From positions 1 through 64,000 of the forward strand of contig JAKFCT010000028.1 in NCBI GenBank assembly GCA_036676495.1: a stretch of DNA of 64,000 bases, given 5' to 3'. This DNA comes from Candidatus Sericytochromatia bacterium. GTDB lineage: Bacteria; Cyanobacteriota; Sericytochromatia; S15B-MN24; UBA4093. Position numbers and translations under genes: made by a program. The first letter of the stretch is position 1, and each line of letters begins with the position of its first letter. Shown here piece by piece: positions 14,261-16,951 of this stretch. Under the pieces are notes generated by a model that ran no database searches, was not told the DNA's origin, and saw nothing but the letters and a program-made list of their open reading frames with translations.

Positions 14261-14986
14261 ATGGCCACGAAACCCTTGACCCTTAGCCCCGTGCCGCGTC
14301 ATCCCCGGATGCGGACGTCCTTGCCGAGCCGTACCTGGCCGTGGGGACGCTTCCCGTCACGGCCCTCCGGGACGCTGACCCGCTTTGGATCGCTGTTACT
14401 AGCCGGGGGGCTGGTCTTGAGCTTGGGGGCTACGGCCCGTCTGGTGAAGGCACCGGCCCCTCAAGGGGTAACTGTGCCTCAGGGGGTTGCCTTGGCTCAG
14501 GCGCCGGCTCGGCCGCGCGTGACGCTGGACCGGATTGCTCCTCCTCCGGCGGGGCAGTATCCGTACAAGGCCTTGATCGCGGAGATGGCCGCCAAGTACG
14601 ACTTGTCGCCGGAGTTGGTGGCGGGCGTGGTCTACATCGAGAGCAACTTCGACAAGAACTCCGTGAGCCATGCGGGGGCCATCGGGCTGATGCAGCTGAT
14701 GCCGGCCACCGCAGGGCCCCTGGCCCAGCGGCTGGGGATGCGCAAGCTGGACCTGACCGATCCGCGCATGAACCTGGAACTGGGCTGTTACTTCCTGCGG
14801 CTGCTGCTGAACAAGTACGACAACCACCTTCCGACGGCGCTGAGCTACTACAACGGAGGGCGCTGGGGGATCGTGAGCCGCGGGGTCTACCGCAACCGGC
14901 GCTACATCCGCAAGGTCATGGACTCGTACTGGCGCTACGCGCAGCCGGTGTCCAACGGGTTCAGCACGGGCCAGGTGGCCCCGTGA
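14261..14986 (+). CDS. Lytic transglycosylase (SLT domain)
   Basis: IESNF, AVS-like NSVSHAGAIGLMQLMPAT, ALSYYNGG; N-terminal hydrophobic segment. Confidence 0.9.
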   Translation: MATKPLTLSPVPRHPRMRTSLPSRTWPWGRFPSRPSGTLTRFGSLLLAGGLVLSLGATARLVKAPAPQGVTVPQGVALAQAPARPRVTLDRIAPPPAGQYPYKALIAEMAAKYDLSPELVAGVVYIESNFDKNSVSHAGAIGLMQLMPATAGPLAQRLGMRKLDLTDPRMNLELGCYFLRLLLNKYDNHLPTALSYYNGGRWGIVSRGVYRNRRYIRKVMDSYWRYAQPVSNGFSTGQVAP

Positions 14987-15050
14987 TCGGGGCCTCGGTC
15001 GCCGAGCATTTCTGAGCGATTAAATCCTTATTATTTGTTCATTGAAACGA

Positions 15051-15079
15051 TTGCATCCGTTGTCGGGCTCGCCTATACT
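15051..15079 (+). promoter_or_regulatory. sigma70 promoter driving an ORF-less transcript
   Basis: TTGCAT-N17-TATACT with an AT-rich UP-like tract upstream (15020-15050). Confidence 0.75.
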
Positions 15080-15085
15080 GAGTTT

Positions 15086-15320
15086 CCGCAAGGGATGAGG
15101 CGCATGCCGAGAGGCCCGGGCCGCAAGGCCCCGGTCCGCAGGAGCGCCCCTAGCTGAAGGTGGGCATGCAGCGATCGTATGCTGTGGATGCAAATCCCCC
15201 CACAGGGTCCTCGATGGGGTCGCGGCCGAAGATTCTCCGGGATAGTCGGTAGGGCCACAGACGAACCTGACGGACCGAGGAGGCCAATCGTTCCTCGGAC
15301 GTCATCACTTCCCGCGACGC
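15086..15320 (+). ncRNA. Candidate structured non-coding RNA (~230 nt), family not recognised
   Basis: Lies between a promoter and a terminator; multiple helices, two closed by GCAA tetraloops; 5'/3' ends complementary; no credible ORF. Confidence 0.6.
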
Positions 15321-15347
15321 AAAAAAGGAGGCGCAAGCCTCCTTTTT
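15321..15347. terminator. Bidirectional intrinsic terminator
   Basis: AAAAAAGGAGGC-gcaa-GCCTCCTTTTT. Confidence 0.85.
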
Positions 15348-15359
15348 CGTTTCTCCCCC

Positions 15360-15686
15360 TCAGTGCGGCCGCTGCTCCGGGACCTTCGCGATCGTGAGCT
15401 GGTTGTTCACGTCCAGCACCGCCGGCACCGAGAAGGCCGCTTCCGCCGCCATCCGCTTGTCCTGCCGATCCGGAACCGTGCCCAACAACGTCACCACGCT
15501 GTTCAAGACCCGGATCTCCAGCCCGCCCAACGCGACCCCTTCCTCCTCCAGCGCCTCATGCACCCGTTCCGCCAGCTCCGCGTCGGTTTCGTATCCCAAG
15601 CGCTCCTCGCGCAAACTCGACGGATCCACGTAACTGGACTCCGCCGTGTAGCTCCCACACGTGGGGCAGTAGCCATGCTTGATCAT
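15360..15686 (-). CDS. BON-domain protein with N-terminal CxxC
   Basis: DAELAERVHEAL...VVTLLGTV...AFSVPAVLDVNNQL is the BON pattern; CPTCG at the N-terminus; GGAGG RBS. Confidence 0.85.
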   Translation of the reverse strand: MIKHGYCPTCGSYTAESSYVDPSSLREERLGYETDAELAERVHEALEEEGVALGGLEIRVLNSVVTLLGTVPDRQDKRMAAEAAFSVPAVLDVNNQLTIAKVPEQRPH

Positions 15687-16162: not shown

Positions 16163-16951
16163 TCAGCGCGACAGGACCCAGTAAAGCGTCGACGCGGCGC
16201 GGACGTAGGGCGATCGCCAGATCCCTTCTCTCCGGGGCAAACCCTCTAGACGGGCGATCGCCTCCTTCGCCCAGGCCTCCTCGGAGCGAAAGGCCGTCAC
16301 CAGCAAGACGCCTTCGGGCGTGAGCAGGCTCCGCGCATGCCGCAGCAAGCCATCGATATCGAAGTAGGGTCTCGGCAAGGCCCAGTCGAGCAATTCCTGC
16401 TCCCTCCAGAAGGGATGCAGCAAGAGGATCACGTCGTAAGCTCCCGCGTGGGCCCGGACATCGCCCGCGCGATACTCCGCCTCCAGCCCCCGCGCATAGG
16501 CCTGCGCGTAGTCATGCCGGGTGAAGCCGTCCCGGTAACGGTGATAGGGGTCGAGCTCGATCCCGGTCATCCTCACCTCGCGGGGCACAGAGGTTCCCGC
16601 GCGACGCAGGAAGCGATACGCTCCGGGCAGGTAGTGCCAGTCCTTGGCCCCGATATCCAGCACCGAAAGCGCCGGGGGGAGGCGTTCCGCCAGGGGGCCC
16701 AGGGCCGCCTCGAGCATGCCCACCACGTGCAGGTTCTCCCGCTGGTTCTCATGGTCGTCCGGCCAATCCAGGCCGTAGCGCTGGCGCAAGCGTCCGGACG
16801 CTTGCGCCAGCTCGGTTCCCGGGGGAAAGAGCTCTTCCCACGGCTCGGCCGGCACGTTCAGGCCCGAGCGAGGACGAAACGTCAGGCGACGCCATGCAAA
16901 ACGGGCGTGGTTGAGGAGGCTCCAGAGGGCGAAAGTCGAGGAGTGGCGCAT
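16163..16951 (-). CDS. Class I SAM-dependent methyltransferase-like protein
   Basis: VLDIGAK, GIELDP, YDVILLLHPF, LLTPEGVLLV. Confidence 0.7.
   Translation of the reverse strand: MRHSSTFALWSLLNHARFAWRRLTFRPRSGLNVPAEPWEELFPPGTELAQASGRLRQRYGLDWPDDHENQRENLHVVGMLEAALGPLAERLPPALSVLDIGAKDWHYLPGAYRFLRRAGTSVPREVRMTGIELDPYHRYRDGFTRHDYAQAYARGLEAEYRAGDVRAHAGAYDVILLLHPFWREQELLDWALPRPYFDIDGLLRHARSLLTPEGVLLVTAFRSEEAWAKEAIARLEGLPRREGIWRSPYVRAASTLYWVLSR

Follow-up and report, generated by a model that had tools for sequence, protein, structure and literature searches.

A probable gene for a structured noncoding RNA in a genus of Sericytochromatia

Among the structured noncoding RNAs of bacteria, 6S RNA (Rfam family RF00013) is a stable, untranslated and abundant transcript of ~180-200 nucleotides (nt) that is made from its own promoter and binds RNA polymerase. 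The Ms1 RNA of mycobacteria, a stable multi-stem RNA of ~300 nt that belongs to one lineage, binds the RNA polymerase core. The raiA and OLE RNAs and similar orphan motifs span many genera or phyla and exhibit strong covariation. In this report, we describe a locus that is very probably a real gene for a structured RNA, situated in a 64,000-nt stretch of DNA (the window, to whose positions all coordinates refer) from Candidatus Sericytochromatia bacterium (assembly GCA_036676495.1, contig JAKFCT010000028.1). The predicted primary transcript is encoded on the + strand at 15086-15347 and would be ~262 nt long with its terminator. That its product is a stable RNA working in trans by binding protein, as a component of a ribonucleoprotein (RNP) or as a decoy, is a more tentative suggestion, to which we give somewhat less than an even chance. 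Sericytochromatia, a sister lineage of the photosynthetic cyanobacteria, have not been cultured and have received little study. The value of the locus lies in a well-delimited candidate for a new RNA family within a known kind, the independent bacterial structured noncoding RNA gene, and not in a new principle.

In its presumed mode of action, the candidate would most resemble lineage-specific protein-binding RNAs of the 6S and Ms1 type. It shares with 6S RNA an own promoter and the predicted character of a stable, untranslated RNA. However, 6S RNA forms a long rod whose central bubble mimics an open promoter, whereas the candidate is predicted to form a four-arm junction closed by a helix (P1), and RF00013 has no match to it at E<=10 within 14950-15450. 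Ms1 is the nearest analogue as a lineage-specific protein-binding RNA other than 6S, a likeness that is drawn from its description; no family in the copy of Rfam that we searched matched the candidate, and Ms1's presence in that copy was not established. The candidate has in common with raiA, OLE and similar motifs a complex conserved intergenic fold with its own promoter and terminator, but it is found in only one genus and matches no such family at E<=10.

Two further comparisons concern the overall shape of the RNA. A preliminary description of this locus, made from its sequence alone, had remarked on a faint resemblance to lysine riboswitches (RF00168), which also form P1-closed multi-helix junctions, and the candidate does carry GAGGCGC near its 5' end. 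This resemblance did not hold up, as RF00168 is silent at E<=10 in the same interval, the junction strands of the candidate are not conserved, and no gene lies downstream in cis: the RNA is not the leader of a same-strand lysine gene, and a convergent gene follows its terminator. The Y RNAs, including YrlA, resemble the candidate in having 5' and 3' ends that pair in a closing stem, a structured body and a function that depends on protein binding, as is presumed for the candidate. In contrast to the Y RNA systems, there are no matches to the Ro protein domain (TROVE, PF05731) in the genome, which is 91.9% complete, and the candidate has neither a tRNA-like module nor a match in Rfam. On every feature that could be tested, the candidate falls outside the 6S RNAs, the lysine riboswitches and the Y RNAs.

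The preliminary description had proposed a comparison with Rfam, and we used version 15 (4227 families). When the whole window was searched at gathering scores, two tRNAs elsewhere were the only hits, and the candidate had no match. A permissive search of 14950-15450 at E<=10 likewise assigned no family to the candidate; its eight matches are at chance level, scoring 12-17 bits where the cut-offs are 34-70 bits. The terminator accounts for most of them, and none is 6S RNA, the lysine riboswitch or another riboswitch. Two homologous loci from metagenomes, L035 and L036, also match no Rfam family at gathering score. The genome that contains the window (G000; 4.14 Mb, 65.9% G+C, with a reported contamination of 6.7%) carries its housekeeping RNAs at other positions: RNase P RNA (262.6 bits), transfer-messenger RNA (tmRNA; 130.9 bits) and signal recognition particle (SRP) RNA (two loci, 68.1 and 63.1 bits) were all located above their cut-offs. 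The candidate was rejected as the genome's RNase P RNA, tmRNA or SRP RNA, a conclusion that had already been drawn from the lack of their hallmarks. The idea of a divergent 6S/Ms1-like RNA is not supported, as a canonical 6S RNA is encoded at C29:35971-36156 (84.3 bits; the RF00013 cut-off is 46.4 bits), and the predicted fold of the candidate is branched, not a rod with a central bubble. A literature search found no paper on noncoding RNAs of Sericytochromatia. As a separate observation, the two above-cut-off SRP RNA hits (G000:C34:21-120 and G000:C75:6847-6944) could be explained by duplication or, alternatively, by the reported contamination.

The candidate is preceded by the promoter TTGCAT-N17-TATACT at 15051-15079, which was identified by direct reading, by conservation and by a count of its copies in the genome. 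The hexamers occupy 15051-15056 and 15074-15079 and are separated by 17 nt. The TATACT -10 element is invariant in all six homologous loci, the inter-hexamer spacer varies, and the -35 element is TTGCAT in four loci, TTGCAC in L035 and TTGTCT in L003. The preliminary description had called this a near-consensus sigma70 promoter; the strings and the -10 element bear this out, but the -35 hexamer agrees with TTGACA at only 3/6 positions. In the 4.14-Mb genome, where base composition predicts 0.036 copies, the exact string TTGCAT-N17-TATACT is present three times, and each copy precedes an RNA gene or the candidate. The second copy (G000:C47:107447-107475) is 53 nt 5' of the tmRNA gene, and the third (G000:C69:36391-36419, minus strand) is ~60 nt 5' of a tRNA-Pro(GGG) gene. 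These copies support the view that the candidate's promoter is of the type used for stable RNA genes in this genome. Among the other stable RNA genes, that for RNase P RNA has the promoter TTGACG-N17-TAAAAT, and a TATACT -10 element precedes one of the SRP RNA genes.

An AT-rich block (15019-15050, + strand) abuts the -35 element, is nearly invariant in all six loci and contains the palindrome TTCA-T-TGAA at 15038-15046. It may be an UP-element-like sequence or an activator site. A 23-nt string from this block, used to seek a regulon, has no second copy in the genome at <=3 mismatches.

The transcript would start at 15086, as judged from the position of the -10 element, and its 3' end is placed by the U-run of an intrinsic terminator at 15321-15347. 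The terminator consists of an A-run (15321-15326), the stem GGAGGC/GCCTCC (15327-15332/15337-15342) with the loop GCAA, and a T-run (15343-15347). An inverted-repeat search found the same element, with 11-nt arms that are 100% complementary and a 4-nt loop, so direct reading and this search agree with the strong terminator that had been described. It is conserved in all homologues. Because an A-run and a T-run flank the stem, the terminator is a two-way one, common to the RNA unit and to the convergent gene on the other side. That gene, which the preliminary description had correctly recognized as convergent, encodes a BON-domain protein (15360-15686, minus strand; Pfam PF04972, E 4.9e-13). 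The 5' neighbour of the unit is a gene for an SLT-domain lytic transglycosylase (14261-14986, + strand; PF01464, E 6e-24). Between promoter and terminator lies an RNA body of ~235 nt without a credible open reading frame (ORF). The unit therefore exhibits a promoter and a Rho-independent terminator of its own, both conserved in position, and no conserved reading frame, as is expected of an independent noncoding RNA gene. As a side observation, the RNA 5' end (15087-15108) and the 5' half of the terminator (15318-15339) are 77% alike over 22 nt, and both start with CGCAA.

Single-sequence folds of four homologues and a consensus fold agree on one predicted architecture, in which P1 encloses four domains, namely an arm that varies (A), a three-way junction (B) and two hairpins, of which C is long and D shorter. 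Every sequence string given in the preliminary description is present at the locus, and several of its helices recur in the homologues. Three others had to be replaced, however, when five different homologous sequences were compared. P1 pairs the strand CGC-AA-GGGA (15087-15095) with UCCC-GCG (15310-15316). Pairing of GGGA (15092-15095) with UCCC (15310-15313) is possible in 5/5 sequences, and CGC pairs with GCG. In L003 the helix gains CU/AG, and in L036 it gains UG/CA. P1 rests on direct reading of the sequences, because its 3' strand is misaligned by MAFFT. As first described, in a different register, the closing stem is specific to the window.

Domain A (15098-15158), as delimited by alignments and single-sequence folds, is ~55-90 nt long, differs in length and sequence in every species, and folds into at least one hairpin in each. 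The proposed helix GCATGCC/GGCATGC is perfect in the window only, and the hairpin GGGCC-GCAA-GGCCC falls within this variable arm. The preliminary description had seen in two GNRA loops a sign of tertiary packing. Because these loops are not conserved (the loop in domain A differs in each species, and that of hairpin B2 is UAAC in L003), they lend no weight to that idea.

In domain B (15160-15203), whose helices 1-3 are 100% paired in the core alignment, GUGGG/CCCAC encloses hairpins B1 and B2. B1 (15168-15185) has an 8-nt loop that begins with GAYCG, and B2 (15186-15197) has the form GGAU-loop-AUCC. B2 had been described previously, and it holds in five homologues, with one U-A to C-G double change. 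Double changes in this domain affect pairs 14-31 and 35-40. The helix CTGTGG/CCACAG, also proposed for this region, is broken by a T>C change in L003, and the arrangement of GUGGG/CCCAC with GCAGC/GCUGU suits all sequences instead.

Domain C (15205-15268) is a long irregular hairpin with 23 pairs, of which 100% are formed in the alignment. It includes the previously noted GCCGA/TCGGT helix, which holds in five different homologues. Its apex combines a tandem A/G internal loop with an invariant C(UCCG)G tetraloop of the UNCG type. One pair, 62-104, shows a G-C to A-U double change in two sequences, and five pairs show one-sided changes that preserve pairing. Domain D (15269-15303) is a hairpin of the form GACGG-A-CCGAGGAG / loop / UUCCUCGG-N-CGUC, with 13 pairs that are 93.6% paired. 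It is nearly invariant and has no double changes. The helix CCGAGGA/TCCTCGG, which was in the preliminary description, is found in five different homologues, extended by GACGG/CCGTC.

Of the 300 cells in the core alignment, 98.3% contain standard pairs; sliding the partners by 1-3 columns lowers this to 34-49%. The core includes three pairs with double changes and seven with one-sided changes after which G-U pairing is retained. None of 500 shuffles reaches the observed covariation score. This substitution pattern is compatible with the predicted structure. The + strand is favoured, because G-U pairs are conserved and A>G changes occur opposite U; the + strand also has a lower folding energy than the minus strand in 5/5 sequences. 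With the terminator included, the fold has a z-score of -2.28, a weak signal when taken by itself. The proposal of a new multi-stem noncoding RNA thus stands in its own promoter and terminator, its lack of an Rfam match, its conservation and its pairing, although not in the three helices that were replaced.

The nucleotide conservation of the unit is far above that of neutral sites. In core columns 60-150, which correspond to upper C and D, identity is 88-97% in each of the 10 pairwise comparisons; between species, the third codon positions of the BON gene next to the unit reach only 61-74%. Stretches of 32 nt and 40 nt show little or no change, and 15222-15253, in domain C, is invariant. Upper C and all of D are near-invariant on both strands of their helices, whereas the junction strands vary between species. 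The RNA is likely to be important for the genus, because its arms are better conserved than the proteins encoded next to it and because its promoter string is the same as that of tmRNA.

The unit is present in a single copy in its genome. Among 41 related genomes searched with BLAST, it is present in that of the window and in two others of the same genus, G001 and G002, at identities of 84% and 79%. A further BLAST match, in G010, was rejected, as it involves only a similar terminator, and the BON neighbour there is a different gene. A covariance model of the core (R1), applied at E<=0.01, identified the same three genomes among 27 of the order, 47 of the class and 151 in a sample of the phylum. 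Three extra hits in the class at E<=1 (15-17 bits) were judged to be noise, because their alignments contain long deletions. With its filters off, R1 found no match in the syntenic SLT/BON spacers of other genera. An exact-pattern scan of a genome collection returned two records, with cores identical to those of G001 and G002. A scan of metagenomes returned four loci, of which L035, L036 and L037 are true homologues (149-168 bits), L036 and L037 being nearly the same sequence. The fourth, L034 (2562-2583), was dismissed as chance, as it contains only an exact 22-mer of the invariant C apex, with no model hit and no further alignment. In total, there are five clearly different sequences, all within one genus. 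The known range is thus one Sericytochromatia genus, represented by three of the 151 sampled phylum genomes and by three metagenome contigs. SLT and BON genes flank the unit in all homologous loci, and the SLT gene was found by tblastn beside the RNA in L002, L003, L035, L036 and L037.

Data from sequencing libraries provide a weak hint that the RNA is abundant and perhaps processed. A search of a sequence index found 20 runs with part of the stretch, four of which are RNA libraries from four studies; the evidence is drawn from these four and makes no use of X1-X3 and X5-X17 or of their habitats. All four RNA libraries contain the core on short contigs of 157-171 nt, which start at 15159, 15169, 15172 or 15174 and end at 15303 or 15313. 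The contig in run X4 is identical to the window, and the other three carry G002-like species variants. The contigs of runs X18 and X20 have adapter-like loose ends at 15174 and 15172, respectively, and 5 nt past 15303. We take these loose letters to be the ends of Illumina adapters, in which case the inserts extend from 15174 or 15172 to 15303 plus 5 nt, and the two contigs have the same 3' end across two studies. The RNA may be processed to a stable core of ~135 nt, from 15172/15174 to ~15308. The four runs have no contig over 14723-15132 or 15338-15800, a lack of cover that we do not count as evidence. The pieces at 14661-14712 in these runs are low-identity SLT fragments of other organisms.

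We propose that the locus is an independent gene on the + strand, transcribed from a stable-RNA-type promoter and ending at the two-way terminator. The transcript would fold into the P1-closed multi-helix junction carrying arms A, B, C and D. Upper C and D would form a sequence-specific binding surface displayed on this scaffold, an assignment made because both arms are near-invariant while the junction strands and arm A vary. The RNA would then act in trans through a protein, as an RNP component or a decoy. A protein-binding RNA fits the conservation best, because a base-pairing small RNA (sRNA) keeps a short seed, and an aptamer or ribozyme keeps its junction. The stable-RNA-type promoter also fits a protein-binding stable RNA. 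The candidate is a concrete target for analysis of metatranscriptome reads, for covariation analysis with more genomes, for in-vitro probing and for pull-downs.

Several considerations weigh against this interpretation. The protein partner is itself a prediction, and the invariant helices could equally reflect alternative pairings, as in a switch, or tertiary contacts. Of the 50 pairs, 39 never vary, and covariation has little power because there are only five clearly different sequences, all closely related members of one genus. Moreover, the core alignment was fitted to a model that was built from these same sequences. Without the terminator, the folding energy of the window's RNA body is not significant (z-score of -0.79; homologues range from -1.2 to -3.1). 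A generic scan for promoters and terminators listed neither site (0 and 0). With regard to the RNA libraries, a contig is no proof of transcription and reveals neither strand nor ends nor level, and DNA occurs in RNA libraries.

An unlikely but serious alternative to a protein-binding RNA is a base-pairing sRNA, whose accessible 5' end, B1 loop (GAYCG) or D loop would pair with mRNAs in trans, with the fold serving for stability. A promoter of its own, a U-tailed Rho-independent terminator, the lack of an ORF and a size in the sRNA range would all suit such an RNA, and a narrow distribution at the genus level is typical of sRNAs. However, the conservation spans ~90 nt and includes both strands of helices, and is not that of a short single-stranded seed. 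A scan of the genome for complementarity, which covered near-exact matches only and was made without gene annotation as a guide, also offers little support. Its best result is a 17-nt match (E 0.05) that falls within a coding region and uses an RNA segment differing among species; the other matches are 14-15-mers and 18-20-mers with one mismatch (E 0.2-3.2).

It is also possible, though we consider it doubtful, that the candidate is the founding member of a new class of large structured RNA peculiar to Sericytochromatia, either an RNP scaffold or a catalytic or sensor RNA, perhaps processed to the ~135-nt core. The space between the SLT and BON genes would then be a fast-evolving slot for RNAs, in which G003, of genus g2, has an RNA that is similarly built but different in sequence. 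The SLT/BON spacer of G003 contains a different, RNA-like unit of ~220 nt (L017, 2256-2476). This unit combines a closing stem and a three-way junction, with GCGAUCG in the loop of the first hairpin, with a promoter-like TATAAT box and a hairpin that resembles a terminator. Its fold has a z-score of -4.17, and 0/200 shuffles fold as well. Similarity to the candidate under R1 is limited to one hairpin of 10.1 bits, and the G003 unit has no Rfam hit. It could be a strongly diverged homologue or an independent RNA. The shared word GCGATCG is weak evidence of homology, because GCGATCGC is enriched in the genome.

Two observations on repeats belong here. GCGATCGC is the cyanobacterial HIP1 octamer, and the 64-kb window contains 40 copies of it (for example, at 1994-2001 and 16210-16217), compared with 5.33 +/- 2.19 in shuffles; a related word lies in the B1 loop of the RNA (15171-15177). 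This palindrome thus seems to be enriched in a non-photosynthetic Sericytochromatia genome also, and a literature search joining HIP1 and Sericytochromatia found no paper. A repeat of ~55 nt that resembles repetitive extragenic palindromes or miniature inverted-repeat transposable elements adjoins the spacer unit in G003 (L017, 2150-2206). It has 52 matches in G003, 22 in G006 and none in the other eight genomes of the family.

That the candidate is a ligand-sensing or catalytic RNA, such as an orphan aptamer or a ribozyme, or a conformational switch whose helices are fixed by tertiary contacts or by mutually exclusive pairings, seems improbable. The complex branched fold, the invariant helices and the invariant UNCG-type loop could be expected of such an RNA, as could the competing pairings near P1 that the preliminary description had noted. 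Also, the inserts from RNA libraries in two studies begin inside the B1 loop, which would fit a cleavage site, but chemical fragmentation of a folded RNA would produce ends inside loops as well. The junction strands, where the cores of aptamers and ribozymes usually reside, vary between species. Furthermore, no gene lies downstream in cis, and the riboswitch and ribozyme families of Rfam give no match at E<=10.

Very improbable, in our judgment, is an element that functions as DNA, such as a protein-binding, replication or recombination site or what is left of an inserted element. Genus g4, a sister genus, has the SLT and BON genes directly adjacent, with no unit between them, which means that the unit originated, or was inserted, as one block; the weak thermodynamic signal would also be accounted for. 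Yet one-sided changes keep G-U pairs that exist on the + strand only, double changes keep pairs, promoter and terminator are conserved in the expected positions, and the core appears in contigs of RNA libraries. The unit is also single-copy, no direct or inverted repeats were found flanking it, and collections of phages, plasmids and viruses yielded only short chance or terminator-like pieces.

A small protein encoded on either strand is barely conceivable: ORFs of 87 amino acids (15073-15336, minus strand, TTG start) and 72 amino acids (15179-15397, + strand) are listed, and in the window, L002 and L035, minus-strand frame 0 runs through the core without a stop, but this frame has a stop in L003 and is shifted by a 1-nt core deletion in L036, most of the changes that were inspected in this frame alter the amino acid, and start codons are not conserved (the ATG at 15179 is lost in other species, and its ORF crosses the terminator). 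In addition, the 32- and 40-nt stretches lack synonymous change, whereas neighbouring third positions are 26-39% different. With frames broken, starts not conserved and conservation above that of synonymous sites, the earlier view that the unit contains no credible ORF is upheld.

Finally, the BON-domain protein encoded beside the unit has the N-terminus MIKHGYCPTCG in all five species, a cysteine-containing sequence that is unusual for a BON protein.

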